A stretch of 64,000 nucleotides of DNA, taken from a virus. Taxonomy: Duplodnaviria; Caudoviricetes. The stretch lies in the IMG/VR virus record IMGVR_UViG_3300037454_000475, positions 32,001 through 96,000 of that record, one strand, 5' to 3'. Under the pieces are notes generated by a model, which searched no databases, had not been told where the DNA came from, and saw only the letters and a list, made by a program, of their open reading frames with translations. Of the stretch, positions 3,132 to 18,947 are shown in pieces. How positions within the stretch are numbered: the stretch's first letter is position 1; the number at the start of each line of letters is the position of its first letter. A program made the position numbers and the translations under genes.

Positions 3132-3146
3132 GACAATATTGGGAGA
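3132..3146 (-). promoter_or_regulatory. Trailer complementary to the boxA leader (candidate processing stalk)
   Basis: TCTCCCAATATTGTC pairs with leader GACATATTGGGAGA (14 bp, one bulge). Confidence 0.55.
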
Positions 3147-3151
3147 AATTT

Positions 3152-3227
3152 TGGAGCGGATGATGGGACTCGAACCCACGATATCCTGCTTGGAAGGCAG
3201 GCGCAATAGCCGCTATGCGACATCCGC
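3152..3227 (-). tRNA. tRNA-Gly(TCC), CCA encoded
   Basis: Cloverleaf; CCTGC-CT TCC AA-GCAGG. Confidence 0.95.
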
Positions 3228-3334
3228 ATGGTCGAGGGGCTGCTCGGCGTCACGCCGCCCCCTCGTGAGTGTTCCTTGGTGTCTTACGGATTTACAGCTG
3301 ATTACCGAGGTAGCAAAGCACACTGAACAAGCCG

Positions 3335-3417
3335 CGGAGAGTGGAGGTCTCGAACCCCATACGTTGCCGTACCAACCGCCTTCCAAACGGCGTTGCCGCC
3401 TTGGCAATTCACTCTCC
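3335..3417 (-). tRNA. tRNA-Ser(GGA), 8/4 fold
   Basis: Acceptor GGAGAGTG/CACTCTCC, 4-bp T stem, long variable arm, G73. Confidence 0.85.
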
Positions 3418-3423
3418 ATAATG

Positions 3424-3495
3424 AGCCGCAAGCTGGATTTGAACCAGCGACCTCGTCCTTACCAAGGACGCGTTCCACCCCTGAACTATTACGGC
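3424..3495 (-). tRNA. tRNA-Thr(GGT)
   Basis: CGTCC-TT GGT AA-GGACG. Confidence 0.95.
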
Positions 3496-3656
3496 ATGTT
3501 GGACATCATTAAGAACTCTTTAGAATCCCGCATCCTCCTTTGTTTAAGTTCCTCCAGCCACATTGCAAGCTGTGCATGATCCAATCCGCATTCTTTATTG
3601 GAACATGTCGAAGCAACCTCGTTGGCATGTTGGATGGCTTCATCAAGAGTCATCAT
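3489..3656 (-). CDS. Small phage protein (MMTLDEAIQHANEVA...HAQLAMWLEELK)
   Basis: Resembles a common small phage protein family; stop codon overlaps the 5' end of tRNA-Thr. Confidence 0.7.
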   Translation of the reverse strand: MMTLDEAIQHANEVASTCSNKECGLDHAQLAMWLEELKQRRMRDSKEFLMMSNMP

Positions 3657-3673
3657 ACTGATATATTTATTTG

Positions 3674-3797
3674 TCGAGGCGAGAGGATTCGAACCTCCAA
3701 AACCACTAACGTGGCCCCATGGCTTTCCACTCGAGCAACTATAACCACGGCTCCCGGACCAACCCCGGGCGTGTATAACCAATTTCACTACGCCTCA
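3674..3797 (-). ncRNA. tRNA-like RNA with extra arms
   Basis: Acceptor TGAGGCG/CGCCTCG, D and T arms, three hairpins between them. Confidence 0.7.
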
Positions 3798-3802
3798 ATA
3801 AG

Positions 3803-3878
3803 GGTGAGTAGTCAGGTTCGAACTGACGATCTCCGGATCCACAATCCGGCGCATTGGACCAACTATGCTATACACACC
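3803..3878 (-). tRNA. tRNA-His(GTG)
   Basis: CCGGA-TT GTG GA-TCCGG; G-1:C73. Confidence 0.95.
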
Positions 3879-3885
3879 ATCTGTA

Positions 3886-4000
3886 ATGTCTATCGGGCAT
3901 CCCTCTTACCTTCAGGCCACCCACACCCGTTTGGTTGGACGGGTTGCCCTTGATGGATGGCCGGGGATTCGAACCCCTATTATTAGATTTCGATAAACAT
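3886..4000 (-). ncRNA. Circularly permuted tRNA-like RNA (Y-RNA/YrlA-like arm order)
   Basis: 10-bp terminal stem enclosing T arm, 9-bp acceptor-like helix, then D-like segment. Confidence 0.55.
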
Positions 4001-4002
4001 TG

Positions 4003-4074
4003 TGTTCCCGGGTGGGATCGAACCACCGACCTTCTCCACGTCAAGGAGATGTTCTCCCGCTAAACTACAGGAAC
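4003..4074 (-). tRNA. tRNA-Val(GAC)
   Basis: TCTCC-TT GAC GT-GGAGA. Confidence 0.93.
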
Positions 4075-4234
4075 ATTAGCAGATTTGGTTTAACGTATGC
4101 CGGAGTTCTGCCGGACTCCCACGGATGGGTTCCTCTCTTTTGCGGCTTATCCATCAGCCGTCATACCGGGCATCCTGACTTTCGGTATGCTTTACCCACG
4201 TTTTTACCAGTTATGGACGTTATCAGGTTGGTAG

Positions 4235-4306
4235 TGCTCCCGAGTGGATTTGAACCACTGACCTTCTGCATGTGACGCAGATGTTCTCCCCCTAAACTAC
4301 AGGAGC
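4235..4306 (-). tRNA. tRNA-Val(CAC)
   Basis: TCTGC-GT CAC AT-GCAGA. Confidence 0.92.
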
Positions 4307-4417
4307 ATGTTGCCTCGACACCTTTAAAGAACCAATCAACTATCGCGCGAATGTGATGGACAAGAAACACCCTGCAGCTGGCCGAGGCCTACTCCTCTGC
4401 GTATCGTTGTTCTCTTT

Positions 4418-4495
4418 TGGTGCTCCCGGCAGGATTCGAACCTGCGACCCCCTGAATGTAAATCAGGTGCGCTAAACCGGCTACGCTACGAAAGC
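4418..4495 (-). tRNA. tRNA-Val(TAC), CCA encoded
   Basis: CCTGA-TT TAC AT-TCAGG. Confidence 0.95.
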
Positions 4496-4500
4496 ATATG

Positions 4501-4634
4501 AAGGAACAGACCCTTTTGATACAGGTGCTTATTTGGTCATCTGTAGGACATTTCACTATCGGGCGGCTTATTTAGCACGTGGCCACCCTAACAACCACCA
4601 GCTCCTACAGCTGGTATTCTCCCCTACGGGTTCC
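4501..4634 (-). ncRNA. Structured spacer RNA with pseudoknot potential
   Basis: Closing AGGAAC/GTTCCT; CTGTAGGA/TCCTACAG and GTGCT/AGCAC loop pairings. Confidence 0.5.
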
Positions 4635-4638
4635 TCTG

Positions 4639-4712
4639 TACCGGCGGGTGGACTCGAACCACCGTCTCCTCCTTATGAGAGAGGCGCAAGAAACCACCTC
4701 CGCTACGCCGAT
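4639..4712 (-). tRNA. tRNA-Met/Ile2(CAT)
   Basis: CCTCT-CT CAT AA-GGAGG. Confidence 0.9.
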
Positions 4713-4716
4713 ATTT

Positions 4717-4815
4717 TGTGACCGGCCGGGCTCGAACCGACATCCCCCCAGCTCCTACCTGCTACAGTCGCACAGCGGTCTTACCGGGTCATCTAACCGA
4801 TTGAATCTACGTCAC
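4717..4815 (-). ncRNA. tRNA-like RNA, anticodon loop replaced by ~30-nt hairpin
   Basis: T arm GTCGG-TTCGAGC-CCGGC; acceptor GTGAC/GTCAC; AC stem CCCGG/CTGGG. Confidence 0.7.
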
Positions 4816-4817
4816 TG

Positions 4818-5004
4818 CGGTTCGGCTGGGGATCGAACCCTGCAATCTAACCCTACCATTGAAGAGTGATACTCATGTCCTTTGGTTGCCTACAACCGTA
4901 ACGGCGACTCTATAATCCGGACACTTTCAAAAATTAGTACTCCGCCGGTCACCCCGCGGCAACACCTTCAGTCAGGTTCGCATTTCCGTTTATGCTATCA
5001 AACC
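4818..5004 (-). ncRNA. tRNA scaffold with ~120-nt structured insert in the anticodon loop
   Basis: Acceptor GGTTTG/CGAACC, D stem GCAT/ATGC, AC stem AACCT/GGGTT, T loop TTCGATC. Confidence 0.7.
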
Positions 5005-5014
5005 ATGTTTAGTT

Positions 5015-5788
5015 TTAATTCAAAGGAATATACTTAAAATTACGGACTTTTAACGGTGTATCAAGCCTATTTGGACGAATTTTTGGATCATCGACATTGA
5101 TATCGATAATGAAATCCATCAAATATCCCTTTTGTGGATCTTTCAGGTTATTTGTAAGCATGTTGGTGTATTTCCTTGATACCGTTTTTGTGACAATTCC
5201 GTTGGCTTTGAACGTTATCTTATCCGGACGCCACTCACACTCATACTTGATCCAATTCTCGGTGGGGTCAAGAGGCTGGTCACATTTCGTGACATTCTTG
5301 GATCCGAGATGTTCATGCACCATTTTACGGTTGTTATAGTGTACATTGTATGTAGTACGCCATGACTTTCCGATCCACGGAAAATGGTTGGTGAAGTTTT
5401 GTAGATAATTTCCACCAGTGGTAAGCACCTCCATCACGTCAATCTCCGGAGGCCAATTCCCGGCGCCACTCAACCAACAAGCACAACCAACATTAAGTCC
5501 TTTTGGAATCATCACTTCAATGGAGAATGTGCCGTAATCAAAATGTTGTCTTGTACGTATCAGTGCTCTTTCAATTGTTGGATGATATACCTTACCATTC
5601 CAGTGTTTTACCTCCCTTGGATTTTCACGGTAATACAGGTGAATCTCGCCGTTTGGCATCCTTTTCACTACATCCTCGGAATCGCTATACCATGCATGTG
5701 GATAACTCGAATGAATTATTCTTCCACCATCCATTTCGCATGACCAGTCATATCCGCACCAATTGAATAAGCTCTTTTCCATATACAC
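5015..5788 (-). CDS. Glycoside hydrolase family 16
   Basis: Catalytic motif WPPEIDVME; YGTFSIEV and EWRPDKITF segments. Confidence 0.88.
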   Translation of the reverse strand: MYMEKSLFNWCGYDWSCEMDGGRIIHSSYPHAWYSDSEDVVKRMPNGEIHLYYRENPREVKHWNGKVYHPTIERALIRTRQHFDYGTFSIEVMIPKGLNVGCACWLSGAGNWPPEIDVMEVLTTGGNYLQNFTNHFPWIGKSWRTTYNVHYNNRKMVHEHLGSKNVTKCDQPLDPTENWIKYECEWRPDKITFKANGIVTKTVSRKYTNMLTNNLKDPQKGYLMDFIIDINVDDPKIRPNRLDTPLKVRNFKYIPLN

Positions 5789-5832
5789 AATGTTCTTTTA
5801 TCAAGAATAAGAAAAATGGCTATGGTTTATCA

Positions 5833-5987
5833 AAAAATCAATCCGCATCCAACACAATGCGCGACCATTCGTGTTGAAATTTCCCTTATCATTCGTCAAA
5901 CCTCACGTGCGACCTGACTCATTTACAGTTCCTGAACGCGCCCTTTTTCGCGAGGGCTCAAGGCCGTTGTGGAATGATTTAGATTTT
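5833..5987 (-). ncRNA. Structured spacer RNA with kissing-loop potential
   Basis: Multibranch fold; loops CGCGA and TCGCG are complementary. Confidence 0.5.
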
Positions 5988-6057
5988 GTTCCATACAGGG
6001 GCTCGAACCCATGACCTCCGGCTTACGCCAGCGTGCTGCCAATTACACCACATGAAT
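5988..6057 (-). ncRNA. Anticodon-less tRNA mimic (GTAA tetraloop)
   Basis: Normal D and T arms; CTGGC-GTAA-GCCGG. Confidence 0.75.
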
Positions 6058-6151
6058 TTTACGCCTATTGTTTATTCAGTACTAACCCTGCACGACTTTC
6101 CTTTCAATATCGTCAACGCCATCCTACTACCACGTGCAGGTGGGTTCGGCG

Positions 6152-6233
6152 CGGAGAATTGAGGTATCGATCCCCATACAAATGTACAGCACGCTTTCGA
6201 GACGGCTCCCTTCACCATCAGGGTTAATTCTCC
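6152..6233 (-). tRNA. tRNA-Ser(CGA), 8/4 fold
   Basis: Acceptor GGAGAATT/AATTCTCC; T arm GGGG-ATCGATA-CCTC. Confidence 0.85.
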
Positions 6234-6355
6234 AAATGATATACGTAAAAAACGGAGGATTTTCGATTCCTCACCTCCTCTCCATTGGCTGGGACTCCCG
6301 ATATGCCCCGTTAAGGATTTACTAACTACCTCCGGATTAACTTATTGATCGTGTG

Positions 6356-6436
6356 TACCCCTGGTGGGACTCGAACCCACACTCCGAAGAATTAGATCCT
6401 AAATCTAACGCGTACTGCCAATTTCGCCACAGAGGT
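6356..6436 (-). tRNA. tRNA-Leu(TAG)
   Basis: TTAGA-TT TAG GA-TCTAA; variable arm. Confidence 0.95.
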
Positions 6437-6580
6437 ATTTGAAAGTCCGGTTACAACGCTTACAGCGCTCCTTTGGAATTATCCATTGGTCTGTCACCTA
6501 CAAGACGCTTGGCGACTTGGGGAGGTTCAGGGTTTCTGATTCGTTGCGCTACTACAAACCCTTTTTCGCCGGACATTTTA

Positions 6581-6654
6581 TGGAGCCCAGTGACGGAGTC
6601 GAACCATCCCCAACAGTTTTGCAGACTGCCACCCCCCCGCAGAGCTTACTGGGC
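6581..6654 (-). tRNA. tRNA-Cys(GCA), CCA encoded
   Basis: GCAGT-CT GCA AA-ACTGT; U73. Confidence 0.92.
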
Positions 6655-6659
6655 TTATT

Positions 6660-6860
6660 TGTGGGTTTACAGTACCCACGGACTGTATGTTGCCGGGAGT
6701 CGTATTGAACCGTATTCGGGATTCGTGCACCTACCCAAATTTGTAAAACGGACAGCCATTAAAAATCCTTGAATATGCATCTCCAAGGCAATCGCCGGTA
6801 CGCCGCCGAAACGGGGACACTCCCGTAAGAACCGGTCTATAGCTGTTTTTGCCGACATTT
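6660..6860 (-). ncRNA. Structured spacer RNA ending in an H-type pseudoknot
   Basis: TACAGT/ACTGTA with GTGGGT/ACCCAC; long-range CGGGAGT/ACTCCCG. Confidence 0.5.
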
Positions 6861-6870
6861 ATTAGGCTTG

Positions 6871-6947
6871 AAACTTTAATCGGATTCGAACCGATAATAA
6901 CCCATTGATGCATCCGCGGGGCTGGTTTGCCGTTAGCCTATAAAGTT
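6871..6947 (-). ncRNA. tRNA-like RNA with aberrant anticodon arm
   Basis: Perfect acceptor AACTTTA/TAAAGTT and T arm ATCGG-TTCGAAT-CCGAT. Confidence 0.7.
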
Positions 6948-7042
6948 TTCCTCGTGTCATTTTACGCGTTTTTCTTACCTGTGGAAGAGCCTATACCCAA
7001 ATTGTACGTTATGGGCAGGATATGACACTACTGTACAAGTTT

Positions 7043-7117
7043 GCTGTGTAGGGGGATTCGAACCACCAACCGGCGGCTTTCCGGCCACCAGCTCTACCGT
7101 TGAGCATTACTACACAC
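7043..7117 (-). ncRNA. Anticodon-less tRNA mimic, copy 1
   Basis: TGTGTAG/CTACACA; AC arm GGTGGC-CGGAAA-GCCGCC. Confidence 0.75.
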
Positions 7118-7207
7118 ACTCGTCTACCATACGAGCGGCACATTCAATTTCAACCGGGGCGTATGTCCCGGCCACCGGCTGGTAGTACCGGTAAGAAACC
7201 TTCAATG
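7118..7207 (-). ncRNA. Kissing-loop RNA motif, copy 1
   Basis: Loops CTACCA and TGGTAG; stems covary with copy 2. Confidence 0.7.
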
Positions 7208-7209
7208 CG

Positions 7210-7283
7210 TCATCCCGCGGGGACTCGAACCCACGATTTCAAGAGTGAGAATCTTGTTTCCTAACCTGTTAGAAGACAGGACG
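7210..7283 (-). tRNA. tRNA-Glu(CTC)
   Basis: CAAGA-TT CTC AC-TCTTG. Confidence 0.92.
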
Positions 7284-7294
7284 ATAAATAATTG

Positions 7295-7382
7295 TTGCGG
7301 TCGTGGGAGTCGAACCCACTATCACTCCTCTCATGAAGCGGAGCGTTATCGGCGCGTCACCTTTCCGTTTAACTCCACCGCA
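7295..7382 (-). ncRNA. Aberrant tRNA-like RNA with CAT loop and insert between D and AC arms
   Basis: TGCGGT/ACCGCA; T arm GTGGG-TTCGACT-CCCAC; loop TT CAT GA. Confidence 0.6.
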
Positions 7383-7409
7383 CGGGACGCCTCCCGTAAT
7401 TACGTAATC

Positions 7410-7483
7410 GCTGTGTAGGAGGGCTCGAACCTCAACCGGCCGCGTCCCGCAGCCAGCTCTACCTGTTGAGACTTACTACACAC
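7410..7483 (-). ncRNA. Anticodon-less tRNA mimic, copy 2
   Basis: TGTGTAG/CTACACA; AC arm is an 8-bp stem with a GGA triloop. Confidence 0.75.
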
Positions 7484-7571
7484 ACTCGTCTACCACCGAG
7501 TGGCATTTTCCGGTTTCACCCGGGAACTCCGTCCCGGGGCTGAATGGTAGTTCAGTGAGAAACCTTCAACG
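7484..7571 (-). ncRNA. Kissing-loop RNA motif, copy 2
   Basis: CTGAA-CTACCA-TTCAG and ACTCG-GTGGTAGA-CGAGT. Confidence 0.7.
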
Positions 7572-7573
7572 CG

Positions 7574-7645
7574 TCATCCCGTGGGGGCTCGAACCCCAAT
7601 TCCAAGATCGAAAATCTTGTTTCCTACCTGTTAGAAGACAGGACG
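7574..7645 (-). tRNA. tRNA-Glu(TTC)
   Basis: CAAGA-TT TTC GA-TCTTG. Confidence 0.92.
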
Positions 7646-7754
7646 ATGACTGCCGCGGTTTTGATAAGGTAGGCCCGCGGAGAACCTCATACTACCCCGA
7701 GGCTTCACCAAATCGTGTCAGTTACTTCACTGGAGCACGCCCCCTCGGTTGTTG

Positions 7755-7826
7755 TAGTCGGTACGGGATTCGAACCCATGTGACAAGATTGAAAATCTTG
7801 TATCCTAACCTTTAGATGAACCGACC
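7755..7826 (-). tRNA. tRNA-Glu(TTC)
   Basis: CAAGA-TT TTC AA-TCTTG. Confidence 0.94.
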
Positions 7827-7884
7827 ATATGATTGATCATAATCGACCGTAATAATTTTTCTTCATGGCTTTAATGTTTCTTTG

Positions 7885-7967
7885 TACCCCGAGTGGGATT
7901 CGAACCCACACGCGCAAAGGCAACAGGGCTTAAATCTGTCATGTACTACCAATTTCATCACCGGGGC
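7885..7967 (-). tRNA. tRNA-Leu(TAA)
   Basis: Loop TT TAA GC; long variable arm. Confidence 0.92.
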
Positions 7968-8012
7968 TTATACCTCTATATGTAAAGCGCTTTACATTCC
8001 ACCATCCCGCAC

Positions 8013-8331
8013 AACTCTACAAGGAGCGTCTTTAACCTCTCACTCTTTAATTATCGACTTGTGGTTGCCTGCGGTAACTTCTTTGAGTTTGTTACCCTCA
8101 ATGTGTCCTTTTGCGCTTATCAAATTGCATGACACGTATGATAAATTATTTGACCACCCCATCGAGTATCAAACTCAACTTTTTATAACAGATTGGCTAT
8201 CAAGCATCTCGAGCTACTTTTTAGTTCTCTGTAACCTCCTCTTTCCATGGAAGCCGGTTTGGGGGGATGTAAGGCAGGTCAGGGACGACAGGGACACTGA
8301 CGGTTTAAGAGCCTCACGCTCCCCTGAAGTT
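8013..8331 (-). ncRNA. Candidate ~320-nt structured RNA
   Basis: Long closing helix CAGGGGAGCGT/ACGCTCCTTG plus TCTTAAACC/GGTTAAAGA. Confidence 0.55.
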
Positions 8332-8339
8332 TGACCTTG

Positions 8340-8414
8340 TCGGATAGGCAGGATTCGAACCTGCGACCTCATGATCCCAAATCACGTGTGCTAACCTGAC
8401 TGCACCACTATCCG
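8340..8414 (-). tRNA. tRNA-Pro(TGG)
   Basis: CGTGA-TT TGG GA-TCATG. Confidence 0.95.
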
Positions 8415-8453
8415 GTACCACCGGCTTTTTCCAGGGAAACCGGTTCGAACCCA

Positions 8454-8955
8454 TACGCAACGTCAAGACGGTACCACCCGGGCGTTGTTAGGGAGGTGAT
8501 TCCTCCTCACCCGATCATTGTGAACCCGTAAGTGGGACTCCTTCTCCCATCAAACAGGTGGCTTGCCGAGTTACCAAGCAACGATCGAATCCTCGGAGCT
8601 CCTTAATACTGGCGAGCTGACCAAAAAGCCCCTTGCTACAGGCGGGCCGACCGACTCAACTTCATGTAACTTTTTCAGGGTGTGAGCGAACCCACAGGTT
8701 TATTTCCAGTCCTGTATCTGTCGATAAGGTTTGGCCGGCCGGATTCAGTTCCGGACTCGCGCTCCTTATCAGTTACGGAAGTTTTGCCCCACCGGCCGAA
8801 TATTCGCGGGAACTGGTGTGCTGCCCCGGCATCTCGGCGGGGATCGTTGTTGCGTTCCGGCGTGTGGTCGGCAGGGCTCGAAAAGGATTATTCGGCATCC
8901 CGTTGGCCAAACTGGAACCTATTTGGTCTGTGGGGGTACCATCACGATCTGCATA
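8454..8955 (-). ncRNA. Candidate large (~500 nt) structured RNA
   Basis: GC-rich, no credible ORF; terminal helices TATGCAG/TTGCGTA and GATGGTACC/GGTACCGTC. Confidence 0.6.
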
Positions 8956-8963
8956 ACCTTTTG

Positions 8964-9035
8964 TGGACACATGTGGGATTCGAACCCCTCCGTCTCCGTG
9001 CAAGGGAGAAGTGCTACCGTTACACTACATGGCCC
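8964..9035 (-). tRNA. tRNA-Ala(TGC), atypical acceptor
   Basis: TCTCC-CT TGC AC-GGAGA; G3:U70; bulged U, 8-bp acceptor. Confidence 0.85.
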
Positions 9036-9206
9036 ATTTGAAAAATTGGGTTCTTTTGTCGTCCTCCCGAGGTGTTCCGGAACCTTCATATACCCCTTGG
9101 GATACTGCCCGATTACAGAACTTCGATATACCCACGGCGCCATGGGAACCTGAAGGCTCGTTACGGATCAGGGTTGAACCCAAAACAATCCAAACCGCTT
9201 TTCACG

Positions 9207-9289
9207 TGACCTTGGCCGGACTCGAACCGGCACGGGTTTCCCCATAAGTCCCTCAAACTTACGCGTGCTGCCAATTTCGCCACAAGGCC
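9207..9289 (-). tRNA. tRNA-Leu(GAG)
   Basis: TAAGT-TT GAG GG-ACTTA. Confidence 0.94.
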
Positions 9290-9394
9290 ATACGTGGGAA
9301 CGTGTCCCACTTTCTATCTCTATTTATCTCGTGCTCGGAGTACGGAGCGAGCCCCTGTCGTTAATCACCATCCTTACCGTAAATGGCGATTTAG

Positions 9395-9482
9395 TAGCGG
9401 GAGGAGGATTCGAACCTCCGACCTCCTTTTGGGAAGTACTGGCTTATGAGACCAGCGAGATAGTCCACTTCTCTACCCCGCG
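9395..9482 (-). tRNA. Initiator-like tRNA-Met(CAT) with long variable arm
   Basis: CGCGGGG 5' strand with 1:72 mismatch; variable hairpin ACTTCC-CAAAA-GGAGGT. Confidence 0.85.
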
Positions 9483-9496
9483 ATGTGTTTTTAATG

Positions 9497-9653
9497 TGGC
9501 CCCTCAAGGATTCGAACCTCGTACGCTTTCCAAAGCAGGGGCTCTTTGGAGTTTAATATCGAAAAACTCCTCGGGATCTAAAACGCATGACTTTCACATG
9601 ATAGCCCAAGAGCTCTGTTGGGATATATAATAATCACCAGTCGTTAAGGGGCA
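9497..9653 (-). ncRNA. tRNA-like acceptor/T domain with ~110-nt branched arm and no D stem
   Basis: GCCCCT/AGGGGC; CGAGG-TTCGAAT-CCTTG. Confidence 0.7.
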
Positions 9654-9679
9654 ATTACTCCCTGTAGTTAGGTGAACTG

Positions 9680-9753
9680 TGGTCCCGGGAGGATTCGAAC
9701 CTCCGACCTGCTGATTATGAGTCAGCTGCTCTAACCTGCTGCGCTACAAGACC
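9680..9753 (-). tRNA. tRNA-Ile2/Met(CAT)
   Basis: GCTGA-CT CAT AA-TCAGC; Ile-like acceptor. Confidence 0.92.
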
Positions 9754-9913
9754 GAAGGATAATGTCCTTGTTTTCCGGCGAGAGGAGGCGCTTTGCAAAG
9801 ATTTTTGGACGTAATAACATCCAGTCCGGAGCTCCTCAAGGAACGGTATTATACGGTGCACCGAACGCAGATTTACATGGAATTAACCAATACGGCGTAC
9901 AAGCGACATTATT

Positions 9914-10047
9914 GCGGGGAGAACAGGATTCGAACCCATCTTATTTACGGCCTATGAACTTACTTTACCGGTATTAGCTCTTCCCGGTGTTTCTTTTCAA
10001 ATCCAACCTAACGGATAAAAGCCGGCCTCACGTTAGGAGCATCCCCA
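9914..10047 (-). ncRNA. tRNA-like acceptor/T domain with unrelated interior
   Basis: TGGGGA/TCCCCG; ATGGG-TTCGAAT-CCTGT. Confidence 0.55.
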
Positions 10048-10064
10048 ATATTTGTTTCCGGCAT

Positions 10065-10142: not shown

Positions 10143-10150
10143 ATAAATAG

Positions 10151-11982: not shown

Positions 11983-12063
11983 TACCCCGAGAGGGACTCG
12001 AACCCTCACCCTTTCGGACTGGGTTTTGAAGCCAGCGCGTCCTGCCAATTTCGCCACCGGGGT
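11983..12063 (-). tRNA. tRNA-Leu(CAA)
   Basis: Loop TT CAA AA; variable arm. Confidence 0.93.
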
Positions 12064-12241
12064 GTAAATAGGATTTCCTCTTATACTACCCATGAGGGAA
12101 ACCCAAAAAGCTAACATGCACGTACACATACGATTACGTGACCCATCGGTGTCCCATATCCATCACCGAAGCGATGCACAGAGGGTGTGAGCAGCTGTAC
12201 GATCCCAAGTACTGACCGGTACTTCGTTGGGCTTTCATGTC

Positions 12242-13201
12242 TTATATCTTCCCGTTAAACGGGTTCGGTATTCCGTAAATTTTGTAGATCAAATGATCAT
12301 TTATATCAAATGGGTTACCATACAACTTCGAGTACCTAAATATGCAATCGTTCTTGTATTTTTCAAACATTTCATCGGTATAGGTAAGTTCCTTGTACTT
12401 CTCCCTAAAATCCATGGCAGCTTTCCAATCAAGATCCCGGATATCCTCAACCGGATCATCCATAACCGTTAACAAACCTTCAAAATAATTGAATGTGGAA
12501 GCTGATGTCAGTATATGTTTACCCATACAGATGTTCTCAAATATGCGAACCACATTTTGTGAAATTGCGGTATCCGATTCCGGGTTATGAGGTACGTCCA
12601 AAATAAATTTGGTGTTGTACACAACATCCTTGATTTCGTTGGGTCTCAATCCTTCGATACAATAAAATGACTTATCAATAAGTTTGATTTCATCAAAATA
12701 TTTTTTTCTCGAACTTGATGCTTGACCAAAAAATCCAAGATTATAATCATAATCCCCGGAATTTCCGATGTGCTCTGATTGATTGTAAAATCTTAATGGC
12801 ATCCACTTGAGCTTGTTCCATTGATTTGGGAGGAGTTCCTTGTAATACTCAAAGGATTCCAGCCACAAAAGCCATATTTCATCAACATCCTGCAACCATT
12901 CATCTTCCATGTACGGCATAACCCAATACGGTGAATGTTCGGTTTCAAGTAATATCAACTTATTGTATCTCGCCTTTATTTCCTTGAGATCGTACAAATT
13001 GATTGGTTGGGTTGGATATGGCTTTATGTCAAACGGAGCTTTTTTCGAATCAAACCGATCAATACATGGCCAATTGAATATGAGTGTCCCTTGTGGTTCG
13101 GTTTCATCATAGTGCTCAAGGATCATATCCCGAACGCTTGTGATATCCGAATTGAAGAATACACTAATATTTTTGCCACGTTGCAAATAGTTGATCTTCA
13201 T
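12242..13201 (-). CDS. Putative glycosyltransferase (YkvP/CgeB-like, GT-B)
   Basis: Start MKINYLQRG; C-terminal FFGQ...SR, KFILDV, NVVRIFENICMG pattern. Confidence 0.6.
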   Translation of the reverse strand: MKINYLQRGKNISVFFNSDITSVRDMILEHYDETEPQGTLIFNWPCIDRFDSKKAPFDIKPYPTQPINLYDLKEIKARYNKLILLETEHSPYWVMPYMEDEWLQDVDEIWLLWLESFEYYKELLPNQWNKLKWMPLRFYNQSEHIGNSGDYDYNLGFFGQASSSRKKYFDEIKLIDKSFYCIEGLRPNEIKDVVYNTKFILDVPHNPESDTAISQNVVRIFENICMGKHILTSASTFNYFEGLLTVMDDPVEDIRDLDWKAAMDFREKYKELTYTDEMFEKYKNDCIFRYSKLYGNPFDINDHLIYKIYGIPNPFNGKI

Positions 13202-13217
13202 ATGTTTGCTTTTTATT

Positions 13218-13288
13218 GCACAACCTGTGAGGAATTGAACCTCAACCCCCGGCCGCGCCGGTGCTCTATACCGTGAGCTACAGGTGTA
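13218..13288 (-). ncRNA. Anticodon-less tRNA mimic (3-nt loop)
   Basis: CCGGC-GCG-GCCGG; canonical D and T arms. Confidence 0.75.
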
Positions 13289-13442
13289 CTTCCGAATCGC
13301 ACGGAATGCGGTTCCTTCAGGAGCCGGTAACTCTGTTTCCACCAGTTGGGTCAGGAACATACCCCCGCCTATTGCTACCAAGACGGCTAATCCCTTCTCT
13401 TTTATATCGCCCGGTAGGGAACGTGCTATCACATGTGAAAAG

Positions 13443-13513
13443 TTGTCCCGTCGGGATTCGAACCCAAAATTACAGATCCAAAATCTGTCGTGTTACCGTT
13501 ACACTACGAGACA
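13443..13513 (-). tRNA. tRNA-Gln(TTG)
   Basis: ACAGA-TT TTG GA-TCTGT; U1-A72. Confidence 0.95.
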
Positions 13514-13626
13514 ATAGTAACCCAACCTACCTCAACTTCTATTTTGCTTCATTGGCATCCTGAACCTCCGGAGAGTGGAACTTAAACCCTTTCACTGGTC
13601 TTTCAACCTTCTATCGGTTGGGTTTG

Positions 13627-13698
13627 TTGTTCTAACTGGATTCGAACCAATTCCTCCTGATCCAGGGTCAGGTGTACTACCGGATATACTATGGAACA
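13627..13698 (-). tRNA. tRNA-Gln(CTG)
   Basis: CCTGA-CC CTG GA-TCAGG (C33). Confidence 0.9.
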
Positions 13699-13740
13699 AT
13701 CAACTTTGGTATAATATATGAAACCTTTACAAGAATTTCG

Positions 13741-14139
13741 TTATTCAACAATATTTATTCGGCAATTGCAGTTCTCATAAGATATCTTACCATCTCCATT
13801 TTCAAGTATGTAATAATAATCATCCTGTGTTATTTCCAACCCTTTGAATCTGCATTGGTTGCCTCTGTGATCAATGACTTGTTTTCCAAGGTTATATTTC
13901 ACATATTCACATATTGGCTTCATATTTCCGCATCCGGATCTTTCGATTTGTGAATCAACAAAATCTTCCGGTTTGGTAAGTTGAAGGCTGTAACCAATAG
14001 TGCTGAAATACGATGGAGTAAATAGTCCCAATCTTGTAAATATGCGGAACCATATACTTTCATACCAATCAAGCATCTGCTTTATGGATTTGAATCGTAT
14101 TGTGTAATGAAATGGTAACCTTAAACGCATATACCGCAT
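13741..14139 (-). CDS. Hypothetical protein
   Basis: 132-aa AT-rich ORF co-oriented with the island. Confidence 0.65.
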   Translation of the reverse strand: MRYMRLRLPFHYTIRFKSIKQMLDWYESIWFRIFTRLGLFTPSYFSTIGYSLQLTKPEDFVDSQIERSGCGNMKPICEYVKYNLGKQVIDHRGNQCRFKGLEITQDDYYYILENGDGKISYENCNCRINIVE

Positions 14140-14156
14140 ATACCATATTTTATTTG

Positions 14157-14231
14157 CCCGAACGAACGGTTACGATCCGTCTATTTTACCGGAGTGACAG
14201 TCCGGTTCCTCACCAAGAGGCCTACGCTCGG
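14157..14231 (-). tRNA. tRNA-Asp(GTC), atypical T loop
   Basis: CCGGA-CT GTC AC-TCCGG; T loop ATCGTAA; G73. Confidence 0.8.
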
Positions 14232-14290
14232 ATAGAACCACGCTTTATTTTTGTCATTGTATGATGAAGCATGGGTGAACATCACATGCG

Positions 14291-14446
14291 TGGGTATGGG
14301 TGGAATTGAACCTTGAACAACGCCGTTACTCCTGTCTTACTTGCCGCGGATTTTCGTACAGTTTCTCAACGCCGTAAACCTAACCCTCTAAATAAGAGGA
14401 ACCTCCCTCACTGGAGGCCCCGCTACCGTTACGGGGTTACATACCC
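14291..14446 (-). ncRNA. tRNA-like RNA with 6-bp D stem, 6-nt AC loop and ~70-nt insert before the T loop
   Basis: GGGTATG/CATACCC; CCCCGT/GCGGGG; CCTCC-AGTGAG-GGAGG. Confidence 0.7.
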
Positions 14447-14452
14447 ATATGT

Positions 14453-14526
14453 TGGCAGGGGTGGATGGAATCGAACCACCAACTACGGTTTTGGAGACCG
14501 GCATTATACCGTTTAACTACACCCCT
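14453..14526 (-). tRNA. tRNA-Trp(CCA), CCA encoded
   Basis: Loop CT CCA AA; G73. Confidence 0.95.
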
Positions 14527-14620
14527 ATACGTGTACCATTCACCATGTTCGAACGGTACCAATGTCACCACAACTCTATTGTTTCACCATTATGTCCGGA
14601 GCGGTGGGAGAAGACACGCG

Positions 14621-14693
14621 TGGGAAGGAGTGGAGTCGAACCACTATCTTCGGATTTTCAGTCCGCCGCATAGACCTGCTTTGCTACCTTCCC
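14621..14693 (-). tRNA. tRNA-Phe(GAA)
   Basis: Loop CT GAA AA. Confidence 0.94.
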
Positions 14694-14700
14694 ATATATG

Positions 14701-14783
14701 CGGAGAGCAGAGGAATCGAACCTCATACGTTGCCGTACACACAATTTAGCAGAATGGTTCCTTGCCTGAAGGATTTACTCTCC
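14701..14783 (-). tRNA. tRNA-Ser(GCT), 8/4 fold
   Basis: GGAGAGTA/TGCTCTCC; GAGG-TTCGATT-CCTC; 5-bp D stem. Confidence 0.85.
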
Positions 14784-14792
14784 ATTAAGAAA

Positions 14793-15071
14793 AAACCGAG
14801 TAAGAATTGATGATCACGAAGACCTCGAATTACATGGCGAGCTACGGACTGGAGAAACGGCGGCTGGTTACGCCGATTGCATTACCACGTAGGGTTTTAC
14901 CTCCTGTTGCGTTGCGCGTATGGCTCCTCACGGACAAGACCCTTTCGGGGTACCAACACTCTTCACGGAGCTGACGGTCTGCCTTCGGCTACCGGCGCCT
15001 ACATGCACGCTTATTCCGGAATTACACGTACACTTACCTCCGACACTACTGGGTGGCCCTATACTCGGTTT
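14793..15071 (-). ncRNA. Candidate ~280-nt structured RNA
   Basis: 10-bp closing stem AAACCGAGTA/TACTCGGTTT; several GNRA-like hairpins. Confidence 0.6.
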
Positions 15072-15089
15072 AACCGAATGAACGGTTTG

Positions 15090-15166
15090 TGGAGCAGATG
15101 ACGGGGTTCGAACCCGCAAACCTCCTGCTTGGCAAGCAGGCTATCTACCAATTGATATACATCTGC
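15090..15166 (-). tRNA. tRNA-Gly(GCC), CCA encoded
   Basis: CCTGC-TT GCC AA-GCAGG. Confidence 0.95.
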
Positions 15167-15351
15167 ATGGATGCAAGTCGCTAACGTTCTCTCGAAACCT
15201 CACTTGCGAACCCGGCCGTGGTTCATGGTTTTGGCTGATCTACCTCCTCACAGCTGGCGCCCGGATTATATGGCAAATCCGGGTTAGCCCCGTTTTACTC
15301 CGCCGGGAAGCACTTATTGTCTCCGGCCCCCGGTCGCTTAACGGTACAGCG

Positions 15352-15433
15352 TTGGAAGGGAGGGATTCGAACCCCCGAACCCAATGGGAGTGGATTTACA
15401 GTCCACCGCGTTTAACCACTTCGCTACCTTCCA
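15352..15433 (-). tRNA. tRNA-Tyr(GTA)
   Basis: GTGGA-CT GTA AA-TCCAC; variable arm. Confidence 0.95.
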
Positions 15434-15576
15434 ATGTTTGGAACTAATGAAGCTGTGTCAACTTTCATTCTTCATCCGAGTTAAAGAATTATCTGTCATT
15501 TAACTAATGTGACCATTGTATTCAAGGCGCCCGGCCACTATCCTCGGTTTTTGTACTTCATGTCATTGTCCCATTG

Positions 15577-15672
15577 TGCCGCCGGTAGGGCTCGAACCTA
15601 CTTACTGCTAAAGTCCACTACGAAAATTTGTTAAAGCAGATCGGTTTTACAGACCGGTTCCGTTACGTCGGC
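15577..15672 (-). ncRNA. D-armless tRNA-Tyr(GTA)-like RNA with ~40-nt variable arm
   Basis: Only TAACGGA between acceptor and AC arm; loop CT GTA AA; T arm GTAGG/CCTAC. Confidence 0.75.
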
Positions 15673-15680
15673 ATTATAAT

Positions 15681-15812
15681 AACTCCCATATTACTTGGCT
15701 GTATACCCTATAGGAACGTGCGTTGTTTGGAGTCGAACCAAATTCAGTAACAGCATCACTTGACAAATGCTTCGCGCACTACCTTTCCAGTTTATACAGC
15801 ATGAAAGGAATT
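15681..15812 (-). ncRNA. Long hairpin RNA with embedded T arm
   Basis: GCTGTATA/TATACAGC, GTGCG/CGCAC, TTTGG-TTCGACT-CCAAA. Confidence 0.55.
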
Positions 15813-15813
15813 G

Positions 15814-15885
15814 AGCCGATGGAGGGATTCGAACCCCCGACCAACTGATTACAAAACAGTAGCGCTACCACTGCGCCACATCGGC
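15814..15885 (-). tRNA. tRNA-Thr(TGT)
   Basis: Loop TT TGT AA. Confidence 0.94.
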
Positions 15886-15892
15886 TTATCTG

Positions 15893-15966
15893 TCTCCCTG
15901 GAGGGACTCGAACCCCCAACCTTATGATCCGTAGTCATGCGCTCTATCCAATTGGGCTACAGGGAG
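15893..15966 (-). tRNA. tRNA-Arg(ACG)
   Basis: Loop CT ACG GA; A20. Confidence 0.94.
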
Positions 15967-16054
15967 GAGTTTGAAGAGTTACTACGCTACCCTTCGAAGC
16001 TGTTCCAACGGTGCCTTATCAGGCAGCGATGGCCATTTTTGATCTATTGCCGTT

Positions 16055-16140
16055 TGGCGGAGAATTGAGGTATCGATCCCCATACAGAATGTACAGCACG
16101 TTTTCAAGACGGCTCCCCTCACCATCAGGGTTAATTCTCC
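16055..16140 (-). tRNA. tRNA-Ser(TGA), 8/4 fold, CCA encoded
   Basis: Paralog of 6152-6233; loop CT TGA AA. Confidence 0.87.
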
Positions 16141-16142
16141 AA

Positions 16143-16540
16143 TGGAGCCGCTTTCGAGTGATCCCGGACACTACCCCGGCGGGCGCGGCATACCCATATG
16201 TGTTTGTGCGATTGTATCCTATAAAAGGTGGGTGAGAACTACGCCCTCACCCGTGGCTGTGCTTCGGTGCCTAACTTTAGGCAGCGATAGCCATTTCAGT
16301 ACGTGCGCCAGTTATTGCGCGGACACCATCTCTTTTGTTCCTTCGGCCGCTGTCAAAACCAAACACCCCCATATGAGAAGGTTTATACGATACCTACAAA
16401 CGTTTGGGGACACCGTATGGCATCGATCCACCACCGATTTTTACGAAATCGGAAACGTCTTTAATTGGCGAAAGAGTGGAGGTGACGGGAGTCGAACCCG
16501 TGTCCAAACGGATTATCTAACAAAATACAAACGATTGTGC
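16143..16540 (-). ncRNA. ssrA: Circularly permuted (two-piece) tmRNA; tag (A)GARTEMAIAA
   Basis: Acceptor piece ...GGACACGGGTTCGACTCCCGTCACCTCCA (ends 16477) precedes GGGGGTGTTTGGTTTTGAC (starts 16370); G3:U70; ATAACT then tag ORF 16309-16277. Confidence 0.9.
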
Positions 16541-16544
16541 CATG

Positions 16545-16618
16545 CGGTGTTGAAGGGGCTCGAACCCTCGACCTCCGCCGTGACAGGGCGGCATTCTAAC
16601 CAGCTGAACTACAACACC
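16545..16618 (-). tRNA. tRNA-Asp(GTC)
   Basis: CCGCC-CT GTC AC-GGCGG. Confidence 0.96.
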
Positions 16619-16626
16619 ATATAGAA

Positions 16627-16719
16627 ATCCAACTCAAAAATCCGTAGACGTGGGGGTGAAAAAGGAAAGGAGGTGACCCACAAGCCGTTCGTTCGGCATC
16701 GGATTAAAACCTGTTGGAT
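16627..16719 (-). ncRNA. Structured small RNA with anti-Shine-Dalgarno loop
   Basis: ATCCAAC/GTTGGAT, AATCCG/CGGATT, GTGGG/CCCAC enclosing TCACCTCCTTTCC. Confidence 0.6.
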
Positions 16720-16741
16720 ACTGCGGACGCAGTGGTTTTTG

Positions 16742-16814
16742 CGGGATCAGAAGGAATCGAACCTTCAACCTACGGATTAACAGTCCGGTGCTCTACCGAT
16801 TGAGCTATGAACCC
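16742..16814 (-). tRNA. tRNA-Asn(GTT)
   Basis: Loop CT GTT AA; G73. Confidence 0.94.
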
Positions 16815-16874
16815 ATATTTTGCAGATTTTATTGTCAGCTGGTAACGTCTGCAAACCTTACTGACAACCTTTCG

Positions 16875-16948
16875 CGGGGGAGGTGGGGATCGAACCCACG
16901 ACCATGTGCTTAACGGGCACCCGCTACGACCAACCGAGCTCCTCCCCC
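16875..16948 (-). tRNA. tRNA-Asn(GTT), atypical (G8, C33)
   Basis: Loop CC GTT AA. Confidence 0.85.
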
Positions 16949-16959
16949 ATTATTAAAAG

Positions 16960-17032
16960 TACCACCGGTGGGATTCGAACCCACAACCTCACGGTTAAGA
17001 GCCGCGAGCTCTGCCAATTGAGCTACGGAGGT
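16960..17032 (-). tRNA. tRNA-Lys(CTT)
   Basis: CGCGG-CT CTT AA-CCGTG. Confidence 0.94.
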
Positions 17033-17112
17033 ATGATGATCGGATATTGTAGCATTAGGTACAAGTGCACCCTGAGGCATGTTTCACCTCGGATCTCGGC
17101 ATATCCGATTTG

Positions 17113-17185
17113 TGCTCCCGGTGGGACTCGAACCCACAACTCCCACATTAAAAGTGTGGTACTCTGCCAGTTGAGTTACGAAAGC
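17113..17185 (-). tRNA. tRNA-Lys(TTT)
   Basis: CCACA-CT TTT AA-TGTGG. Confidence 0.95.
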
Positions 17186-17236
17186 CTACTGTTTACCTGA
17201 TTTGTCGTCTTCCACGACAGTGCGTTTTCGTCTCAT
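17186..17236 (-). CDS. Leader mini-ORF MRRKRTVVEDDKSGKQ
   Basis: A-rich start context; paralog of 17345-17404; TAG stop abuts tRNA-Lys. Confidence 0.5.
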   Translation of the reverse strand: MRRKRTVVEDDKSGKQ

Positions 17237-17278
17237 GTTATTAATTTTTTATTTGTTTCAGTTTAAGTGTGACTTAAT

Positions 17279-17354
17279 TGGTGCTCCCGCAGGGACTCGA
17301 ACCCTGAACTCCCGGAGTAAAAGTCCGGTACTCTACCAATTAAGTTACGAGAGC
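17279..17354 (-). tRNA. tRNA-Lys(TTT), CCA encoded
   Basis: CCGGA-CT TTT AC-TCCGG. Confidence 0.95.
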
Positions 17355-17404
17355 CAACGTTTACCTGATTTACCGTCCTTTACGGCTTTACGTTTTCGTC
17401 TCAT
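17345..17404 (-). CDS. Leader mini-ORF MRRKRKAVKDGKSGKRWLS
   Basis: A-rich start context; stop lies inside tRNA-Lys. Confidence 0.5.
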   Translation of the reverse strand: MRRKRKAVKDGKSGKRWLS

Positions 17405-17444
17405 AGCTTAAATGTTTATTTGATTGTTGTTCGCCCTTTAATTA

Positions 17445-17838
17445 AAAACACCCTACGAACGTTGTACTCGGCAACCTCGGATATTGTGGAGGGCCCATCC
17501 ACGGTTTTGACCAGCTAAAGTTTGATGGTGCTTGGTATCCCAATCTCCACTTGCTCGCCTGCGGATGGCGGATGCCGCTGTGGCCCGGCAACTGGCAACG
17601 GAGTACCCATCCGATCAGGGCCGTGCTGTTCCTTGGCCAACACGGATACCATTTAGACCTCCAATAGTTATCGAAACCTGAAGTATCCACCTACCATCAG
17701 GGGAAGTTTGCAACCTTCCCGGGAATCCAGTTTCAACCTCCCGTCCTTTACACCACCTCGCGCATTTCACGGATCAGCCTTCTCCGGAGTTGCCTTCGCT
17801 CTCACGGCCGCGTGGTTCCACGGATTGGAGTATTGTTT
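17445..17838 (-). ncRNA. Candidate ~390-nt structured RNA
   Basis: GC-rich non-coding interval with multiple hairpins. Confidence 0.4.
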
Positions 17839-17841
17839 CTG

Positions 17842-18009
17842 TGATCTCGGTGGGAGTTGAACCCACATTACCATAATCGTTTGCTTTACCACTGCAATGG
17901 TGGGGCGACTAACACGCGTTGTCGCGCTGTCCTCCCCCAAACTTTCAGGTACTACCACTATATCCCAGTGTGAATCTGTTGCAGCATCATCTCTTTGGAG
18001 TACGAGACC
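17842..18009 (-). ncRNA. tRNA scaffold with multiple inserts
   Basis: GGTCTCG/CGAGATC; GTGGG-TTCAACT-CCCAC; expanded D region and extra hairpin. Confidence 0.7.
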
Positions 18010-18020
18010 TTTTAAATATG

Positions 18021-18157
18021 CACCAAGACGAGGATTCGAACCTCGGCCTCAATGTCCTCTCGGGCATTGTATTCTGTCCTCTTTCCATCGTGGCAACTCC
18101 GGCCGGCTGTACAACCAGCTTATTGGTCTTACCACGACTTCATCTAACTACCTTGAT
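18021..18157 (-). ncRNA. tRNA scaffold with ~65-nt D-loop insert and GAGA-capped anticodon arm
   Basis: ATCAAGG/TCTTGGT; CAATGCCC-GAGA-GGACATTG; CGAGG-TTCGAAT-CCTCG. Confidence 0.7.
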
Positions 18158-18341
18158 TGATTGATTATTTCCCTCACTCATCAACCGGTGGTGATTCGCG
18201 ACTCACCACCCGACCCTATTTGCCGGTTCAAACTCTACCGGTGTCGGCTGATTACGTTACGCGGGAGAAGCTACCTCCCTGGAAGGTACTCTACCTTCCC
18301 AAACAGAATTGTTTGTTATGAATGAGTTATTTCCTCAACTT

Positions 18342-18414
18342 GTGGATTGGTGGGATTCGATACCCACATCACGCGGTTGCATACGACCGGAATATTACTT
18401 ATACTTACAATCCA
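18342..18414 (-). ncRNA. tRNA-like RNA with 8-nt T and AC loops
   Basis: TGGATTG/CAATCCA; GTGGG-TATCGAAT-CCCAC. Confidence 0.65.
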
Positions 18415-18720
18415 TCGGCCTCGAGATTACCATACGTTTCTCCTGTTGGCTGTGCACACCAACAACTCCCCTACGGACGCCATCCTCTGTACTCTGTTGA
18501 CTTTCGGTTTACTGCAGCACCTACATGGTCCAACGTTTCCGTGACTTTACGCGACTGGCTCTTGTGAGAAGACCTCGTTATTATCGGACGCTTTTGCATC
18601 GATTCTTTGTCCGATTGCCTCTTAACCTTGTGTTACGCCTGTGTTCCGGTGGCCGGAGTGGTATCTCCCAATCGAGCTTTTGTACCACTGCTAACACTGC
18701 TCTGAAGAGATTCAAACTTG

Positions 18721-18793
18721 AGCGAAGAATGGGACTCGAACCCACGATCTCGACCTTGGCAAGGTCATATTCTACCAACTGAACTACCTTCGC
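18721..18793 (-). tRNA. tRNA-Gly(GCC)
   Basis: Loop TT GCC AA. Confidence 0.95.
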
Positions 18794-18908
18794 ACCGTGG
18801 GGAGGCGATATCTCATCTACCTCCCCGTATATCTTGATCAGCCTTTGACCCACGGTTAATATTCCAGTGAAGGGCAAACCGCATATTATTTCAGGTTGTT
18901 TCGGCTGA

Positions 18909-18947
18909 ATAAGAATCAATCAAATGTCTCCCAATATGTCAAAGAAC
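18909..18947 (-). promoter_or_regulatory. rrn-like leader with boxA (copy 1)
   Basis: 39-bp identity with 11535-11573; preceded by a GGAAC/GTTCC hairpin. Confidence 0.75.

Follow-up and report, generated by a model that had tools for sequence, protein, structure and literature searches.

Leaders of a phage tRNA island resemble the boxA region of Bacteroidales rRNA operons and are complementary to a trailer behind the last tRNA

We analyzed a tRNA island in a 64,000-nt stretch of viral DNA (the window), which corresponds to bases 32001-96000 of the 105-kb IMG/VR virus record IMGVR_UViG_3300037454_000475. The source is a large uncultured phage from gut or rumen, and the record is estimated to be 58% complete. 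All features of the window described below lie on the minus strand. The cargo of the island (3152-18793) consists of 38 tRNA genes called by ARAGORN, a permuted tmRNA, tRNA-like RNAs and three open reading frames (ORFs). Two copies of a 39-nt leader repeat were located at 18909-18947 (copy B) and 11535-11573 (copy A). They were identical over 39 nt, as had been noticed in an earlier reading made without database searches (the sequence-only reading), and their 12-mer GTTCTTTGACAT was present at exactly two sites of the window and of the whole record, 11573-11562 and 18947-18936. Each leader lies 3' of a promoter-like motif, GTTAA[G/T]-N16-TTATATATAG, followed by a GGAAC-loop-GTTCC hairpin. Motif B is GTTAAG-N16-TTATATATAG (18993-19024) and motif A is GTTAAT-N16-TTATATATAG (11611-11642). 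The boxB-like hairpin B (18966-18983) has an 8-nt loop and an outer GUUG/CAAC extension, and hairpin A (11590-11602) reads GGAAC-AAG-GTTCC. This arrangement had also been pointed out before and was confirmed in both copies. The boxA-like element GTTCTTTGACA occupies 18937-18947 in copy B and 11563-11573 in copy A. On the sense strand it is placed 37-46 nt past TTATATATAG, a predicted promoter element, and 16-18 nt past the hairpin, both in these two copies and in 16 leaders of related phages.

At the other end of the island, the last tRNA gene is tRNA-Gly(tcc) with an encoded CCA (3152-3227). A trailer, AAATTTCTCCCAATATTGTC (3132-3151), begins directly 3' of this CCA. It is followed by a GC-rich intrinsic terminator at 3064-3097, composed of GGCGCTGA, a 9-nt loop, TCAGCGCC and a T-run. 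The sequence-only reading had placed a trailer, TCTCCCAATATTGTC (3146-3132), between the last tRNA and a terminator, and the GC-rich hairpin with its T-run at ~3097-3064 agrees with that placement.

The same reading had suggested that the leaders resemble the boxA of host rRNA (rrn) operons. We compared them with 64 Bacteroidales 16S leaders, and with the 16S-23S spacer in the 22 loci that cover it. The most conserved 9-mer of the 16S leaders was GTTCTTTGA, present in 50 of the 64, within a consensus aagaaagaGTTCTTTGA[A/C]A located ~35 nt 3' of the TAccTTTG promoter box and 140-300 nt 5' of the 16S gene. The phage element GTTCTTTGACA was a variant of this 16S-leader element, found exactly (11 of 11 positions) in 7/64 leaders, mostly of rumen Prevotella or of Bacteroidaceae metagenome-assembled genomes (MAGs). 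A second host copy was found in the 16S-23S spacer, 3' of the spacer tRNA and a small hairpin. It read GATCTTTGACATATTG[A/T] in 12 of the 22 loci, and GTTCTTTGACATATTG, GTTCTTTGACATATTGA in Hallella. The phage 14-mer TCTTTGACATATTG was identical at 14/14 positions to the spacer boxA region of Segatella, Prevotella and Hallella, and was counted five to six times per complete Segatella or Prevotella genome (reversed-pattern control, 0).

The reverse comparison led to the same sites. When a pattern derived from the phage leader was applied to a metagenome collection, five bacterial rrn operons were retrieved, with all matches in the spacer just 5' of 23S; the 16S of the retrieved operons was ~81% identical to a Flavobacteriales locus over the full length, and a partial third was 87% identical. 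An nhmmer profile built from 16 phage leaders matched 492 kb of Bacteroidales loci 13 times, and 13/13 matches fell on the sense strand at one or other of the two rrn boxA sites. With so short a motif, these matches were singly weak (E 0.02-10), and the signal is their location. The Bacteroidales element matches AUGAUCUUUGAAA, the boxA consensus of Bacillus subtilis, whose binding to NusB was shown by nuclear magnetic resonance, and is close to the Escherichia coli boxA UGCUCUUUAACA (PMC13753749). These results support the view that the phage leader carries a boxA of the Bacteroidales rrn type, and we infer that the host belongs to the Bacteroidales.

The leader is also complementary to the trailer. 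The 5' strand of the putative helix is GACATATTGGGAGACATTTG at 18921-18940 in copy B and lies at 11547-11566 in copy A, and the trailer at 3132-3151 is its 3' strand, so that the helix would span 15.8 or 8.4 kb. As read from duplex folds and alignment, the pairing consists of 3 bp, a 1-nt U bulge, 11 bp, a mismatch and 4 bp. The complementarity described in the sequence-only reading is therefore present; its uninterrupted run of 14 bp is not, as the 15-nt trailer has one extra T. The duplex of leader B with the trailer had an energy of -25.1 kcal/mol (z -4.3), and 0/300 shuffled trailers were as good; for leader A the energy was -21.6 kcal/mol, and 1/300 shuffled trailers was as good. In this genome alone the complementarity is suggestive, and it is the replication of the trailer position in relatives that makes the pairing convincing.

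Relatives were identified by way of the gene that lies immediately downstream of the island. Homologous islands, with a leader of this kind and, at the equivalent position, a trailer complementary to it, were present in L054, a near-identical relative on a 180-kb contig (ERZ27291651 k119_475973), and in L046, L205 and L052, with duplex energies of -20.9 kcal/mol for L054, -20.5 for L046 and -24.1 for L052. Trailers at the homologous position were also found in L003, L180, L177, L206 and L207. A terminator-like hairpin and T-run followed the trailer in L003, L052, L046, L054, L177, L180 and L206. The trailer complementarity that the sequence-only reading would expect in homologous islands is kept in L054, L046, L205, L052 and L003, and is visible in the trailer-only contigs L180, L177, L206 and L207; L049/L050 lack it, and the helix is thus not common to all members of the phage family.

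The most informative relative was L003 (IMG/VR 3300032007_000150), in which both strands differ from those of the window phage. Its leader reads ACACACUGGU then UUCAAAUAGGAGAAGAA, and its trailer, UUCUUCUCUAUUUGAA then ACCAGUGUGU, is located 3' of another last tRNA, Thr(ggt); the duplex energy was -33.3 kcal/mol (z -8.5). In the core GACAYAYUGG, both Y columns form U-A pairs in the window phage and C-G pairs in L003-1. The second L003 leader, ACAUACUGG, gives a U.G wobble with the same L003 trailer, and the first G-C pair is changed to G.U in L046, L054 and L205. The trailer-only contigs L180, L177, L206 and L207 complement leader types found elsewhere; for example, ACCAGUAUG fits CAUACUGGU, and the L206 trailer fits this CAUACUGGU leader type. 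The comparison covered the leaders other than those of L177, L180 and L206 and the first leader of L054, L046 and L205. In this small sample, the pairing appears to be kept by compensating changes. A local alignment of the leader against the whole locus ranked the trailer first to third, and below the top four in L046 and L054. Since local alignment does not single out the trailer everywhere, our conclusions are based on co-variation and on the shuffle test, which is position-specific.

The 16 phage-family leaders share an invariant core, TTGACAYAYUGG, in which TTGACA was conserved in 16/16. The upstream half of boxA was canonical (GTTC or GATC, with CTTT or CATT) in 9/16. A perfect GTTCTTTGA, which extends outside the paired region, was kept in the window phage and in L046, L054, L188, L197 and L205. 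The boxA of L195 is the spacer-type GATCTTTGACA, and that of L052-2 is GTTCATTGACA, a form also found in real rrn spacers. In the predicted fold of leader B, boxA is mostly unpaired, with weak local pairing. The stem of the boxB-like hairpin co-varies, being GGAAT/ATTCC, with both sides changed, in L046, L054, L188 and L205, and GGAAT/GTTCC with a U.G wobble in L197. The leader family is absent from Rfam.

The motif GTTAA[G/T]-N16-TTATATATAG is predicted to be a promoter and differs from the host-type promoter. In the form GTTAAG-N16-TATATATAG it has six minus-strand sites in the window (54457, 54056, 35162, 19023, 11641 and 1355), and four protein-coding genes of the window have the promoter-like motif of the leaders 5' of them. 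It was conserved in L003, L049, L052, L187, L195, L197 and L201. The window also contains a gene for a 220-aa sigma factor (44438-45100; phrog_351 RNA polymerase sigma factor, E 1e-13), whose Pfam Sigma70_r2 score of 22.4 bits is just below the 24-bit cut-off. The phage sigma factor probably reads the phage motif. Its presence makes the use of host core polymerase plausible, and the island is most likely transcribed by host core RNA polymerase with the phage sigma factor. No terminator was conserved between the two units of the island.

In the host operons, the bases that follow boxA are likewise complementary to the far side of the cargo. They pair with the 23S 3' flank at -23 to -35 kcal/mol in L070, L072, L094, L097 and L058. 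In the environmental operon L184, the post-boxA bases UUGACAUAUUGGUGAAAGAGUA pair with the 23S-5S spacer at -71.7 kcal/mol. The partner of GACAUAUUG... lies beyond the 3' end of 23S, 3.0-3.1 kb further downstream, in Segatella copri, Prevotella JUN01a and two Bacteroidaceae MAGs, with energies of -23 to -35 kcal/mol. These pairings indicate that the 5' strand of the pre-23S helix starts inside the downstream half of boxA. We found no description of the Bacteroidales boxA or pre-23S helix in the literature. The phage island and the Bacteroidales rrn operon thus share the boxA sequence (GTTCTTTGA / TCTTTGACATATTG), a small hairpin and an A-rich stretch 5' of boxA, a helix whose 5' strand starts in the GACAU of boxA and whose 3' strand comes right after the cargo, and two boxA sets per transcription unit. 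They differ in that the phage cargo is tRNAs, tmRNA and tRNA-like RNAs with no rRNA, that the phage promoters are phage-specific whereas those of the host are TAnnTTTG, that the phage helix is shorter (~18-26 bp) and spans 8.4 or 15.8 kb instead of ~3 kb, and that a strong intrinsic terminator directly follows the helix in the phage.

A similar order of elements is known from E. coli rrn operons, in which boxB-boxA-boxC sets are located both after the promoter and before 23S, with boxC within the leader-trailer helix (hLT); in the model proposed there, NusB-tethered boxA keeps the leader strand close to the RNA exit up to the point at which the trailer appears (PMC10250234). The phage island shares with the E. 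coli complex (NusA, NusB, NusE, NusG, SuhB and S4) and its hLT the order of hairpin, boxA and helix strand, and the idea of a tether (PMC10250234). The E. coli boxA is, however, UGCUCUUUAACA, with boxC 18-19 nt past boxA, whereas the phage helix strand overlaps the end of boxA. Outside rrn operons, boxA is known from lambda nut sites, suhB and gammaproteobacterial CRISPR array leaders (as cited in PMC13753749), where, as would be the case in the phage island, it guards long un- or poorly translated RNA from Rho. In lambda nut, boxA comes before boxB and protein N is needed, whereas the phage hairpin precedes boxA as in rrn. A lambda-type nut site was rejected on the order of the elements, with no search made for an N-like protein, as the hairpin is 5' of boxA in leaders A and B and in the relatives. 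None of the lambda nut, suhB and CRISPR leader cases joins boxA with a long-range closing helix, and none is a phage tRNA array. Our literature search returned boxA for rrn operons, lambda nut sites, suhB and CRISPR leaders, and nothing on phage tRNA arrays.

The observed boxA identity with the host, the shared layout, the complementarity and the co-variation in relatives led us to consider it fairly probable that the island is a phage-built pseudo-rRNA operon, with two phage promoters, a host boxA and a helix closing its ends. The comparisons largely support the interpretation given in the sequence-only reading, and the phage probably borrows the host machinery for transcription and folding of rRNA to make tRNA. 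We classify the finding as a known rrn control module that appears to have moved to a phage tRNA operon. Under this interpretation, each phage promoter would be read by host core RNA polymerase with the phage sigma factor, and the small hairpin and a boxA copy would be transcribed first. Present on the nascent RNA, boxA would recruit host NusB-S10 together with the remaining rrn antitermination factors, and the polymerase would become fast and Rho-resistant for as much as 16 kb of largely untranslated RNA. The post-boxA bases GACAUAUUGGGAGA..., the 5' strand of the helix, would be kept near the RNA exit by the boxA tether and would pair with the trailer when it emerges just behind the last tRNA. 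The precursor would then be closed end to end in vivo, as in pre-23S rRNA, shortly 5' of the strong intrinsic terminator. The helix might serve as a substrate cut by RNase III, protect the ends, or detach boxA from the Nus factors and thereby restore termination.

Several observations weigh against this interpretation. The helix is short (18-26 bp) and bulged, and a scan of the whole 21-kb stretch ranked the trailer only second to third among complementary sites. Independent lineages in which both strands were observed number about four. L049/L050 keep two leaders but have no complementary trailer or terminator, and their next gene starts 20 nt past the last tRNA. The upstream half of boxA is GAAC, GGAC or GTAC in L003, L049, L052-1, L187 and L201, and in the predicted fold of leader A, boxA is part of a local hairpin of 8 bp. 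A search of the phage record, 58% complete, turned up neither an RNase III gene nor a NusB gene, while the RNase III search recovered the Bacteroides gene used as a control; the phage would therefore have to rely on host factors. The host itself is uncultured and known by inference only. Finally, the conservation of the leader could stem from the helix strand instead of Nus binding.

This last point leads to another explanation, in which the phage copied or converged on the pre-23S closing strand and the helix protects or processes the precursor with no Nus recruitment. The likeness to boxA would then arise because the helix strand of Bacteroidales overlaps the downstream half of boxA. The core TTGACAYAYUGG that is invariant in 16 leaders coincides with the helix strand, and drift is confined to the GTTC part upstream of it, which keeps such an explanation in play; leader A can bury its boxA in a local hairpin, and in E. 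coli the helix is far more important than boxA for 30S biogenesis (PMC10250234). The perfect GTTCTTTGA maintained outside the paired region in six phages and the rrn-spacer forms of boxA in L195 and L052-2 speak against it, however. In addition, L049/L050 keep the leader without any trailer, which indicates that the leader has a role of its own. We regard a helix without Nus recruitment as unlikely. An origin at the DNA level, with the leader and trailer forming the relic of an inverted duplication or a recombination/inversion site around the island that plays no role in RNA, is very improbable. The reverse complement of the trailer does resemble a degenerate leader, and in the clade of the window phage it holds CTTTG...GACA. 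No promoter or hairpin remnant was found beside the trailer copy, however, and the differences between the strands include G.U and U.G wobbles, by which RNA pairing is kept and DNA identity is lost. The trailer is always flush with the last tRNA and 5' of the terminator, even where that tRNA is Gly in one phage and Thr in another, and host rrn operons share the layout.

Two further explanations start from a 47-nt CRISPR repeat of Bacteroidales. The repeat has TATCTTTGACATATTGG, whose TATCTTTG fits TAnnTTTG, the -7 box of Bacteroidetes promoters, and the rrn spacer form GATCTTTG is one base off; the conserved element could then be a host-type promoter element that marks internal starts and gives no signal in RNA. 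The phage form GTTCTTTG has no TA, and there is no TTTG ~20 nt upstream (-33), so that we give this reading little credence. Moreover, the copy in host 16S leaders is ~35 nt 3' of the canonical TAccTTTG box and so lies within the transcript, and the motif matches the NusB-binding boxA of B. subtilis (PMC13753749). A sigma-70 promoter reading of TTGACA was also rejected: no -10 hexamer was conserved at a fixed spacing, the distance to the GATTCTTAT block being 19-32 nt. The other explanation supposes that the leader is a mimic of the host repeat whose RNA acts as a decoy for type II-C CRISPR immunity, since 15 nt (TCTTTGACATATTGG) are common to the leader and to this repeat, whose arrays reach 35 copies. 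Only 15 of the 47 nt are shared, however, which makes a decoy the least credible explanation of all. The repeat ends GTTGTG and CACAAC are absent from the leader, and host rrn spacers hold the same 15-mer, so a decoy would be unspecific. For an RNA anti-CRISPR that copies the whole host repeat, the same 15/47 bases, also present in rrn spacers, led to rejection.

The CRISPR arrays have a 76-nt period and a 47-nt repeat GTTGTGAATTGC...TATCTTTGACATATTGGTCACAAC (sense), and were found in L203:2067-4239 (G168:C14), G027, G074, G099 and G067. As the repeat shares the 15-mer of rrn spacers and phage leaders and its TATCTTTG fits the -7 box, it may carry an internal promoter, a boxA, or both. As for the local hairpin of leader A (11566-11588), the upstream CAAAGAAC can pair with GUUCUUUG of boxA, forming 8 bp with a 3-nt loop. 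L046, L054 and L205 carry CAAAGAAU, and the local pairing of leader A is kept by a U.G wobble. This hairpin could be a switch that hides boxA.

Other searches delimited the family. The exact 21-mer of the leader had no match in IMG/VR, and no relatives of the upstream OmpA-like protein were found there. A promoter-plus-hairpin pattern gave 39 matches in IMG/VR, among which G001 was the only true relative and the rest were due to chance. The flanking gene is present in L004 and L005 (339-kb phage) with no adjacent tRNA island and no leader motif, and L048, L051 and L053 have islands with no leader of this type within the stretch examined. A different element, GTTCTTTGACATATTGGTAAAATAAAA, was located directly 3' of a tRNA inside the tRNA array of another contig family (L191 and L198). 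In this family, a 17-nt complement of GTTCTTTGACATATTGGTAAAATAAAA with one G.U lies right 3' of tRNA-Trp, 2.6 kb downstream; the positions concerned in L191 are 3843-3870 and 6443-6465 in the reverse-complement orientation of the locus. These phage-like contigs may represent a second family with the same design; their sequence is AT-rich, and chance is possible.

Within the island, the permuted tmRNA (16277-16524) matched Rfam RF04321 with 63 bits, and ARAGORN gave the tag GARTEMAIAA; the tag of the L003 homologue is GARQEMALAA. Many T-arm-like GGTTCGAATCC segments between 3600 and 18400 were uncalled by ARAGORN (e.g. ~4724, 5995, 7050, 7302, 10158, 17849 and 18349), which suggests tRNA-like RNAs interleaved with true tRNAs. 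A conserved block AAGATATACGG at 18830-18843 and 11452-11465, followed by a hairpin, sits between each leader and the first tRNA. Its form in relatives is GAGATATAGGG (L003, ~1212-1260 and ~4915-4950; L049, ~5212-5250), and the block with its hairpin had no match in Rfam. One ORF inside the island is GH16-like (5015-5788) and was kept in L046, L054 and L205. A terminator-like hairpin with a T-run at 19095-19135, just 5' of promoter B and 3' of a short ORF, was conserved in L003 and L049. Outside the island, a gene at 22344-23204 resembles queuine tRNA-ribosyltransferase (phrog_887, E 9e-13).

Beyond the window phage, we tentatively propose that large phages took over the whole control module of rRNA operons (hairpin, boxA and helix) behind their own sigma-dependent promoters, and that a 16-kb tRNA precursor is thereby transcribed, looped and closed by the host complex for rRNA antitermination and chaperoning. 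The type of boxA would then track the host clade. As the boxA of the phage is the same as that of host rrn operons, it could serve as a simple sequence marker that assigns an uncultured phage to a host clade. The analysis also defines the boxA and the pre-23S helix of Bacteroidales. The promoter, hairpin, boxA and closing helix would provide compact parts for expressing long non-coding RNA in Bacteroidales, and the proposal offers a rule, open to testing, for the production and closure of very long structured RNA precursors. If it is true, phage tRNA arrays join rRNA and CRISPR arrays as long untranslated RNAs that boxA guards from Rho, and phages would recruit the rRNA antitermination complex, the most specialised transcription machinery of the cell, for mass production of tRNA.

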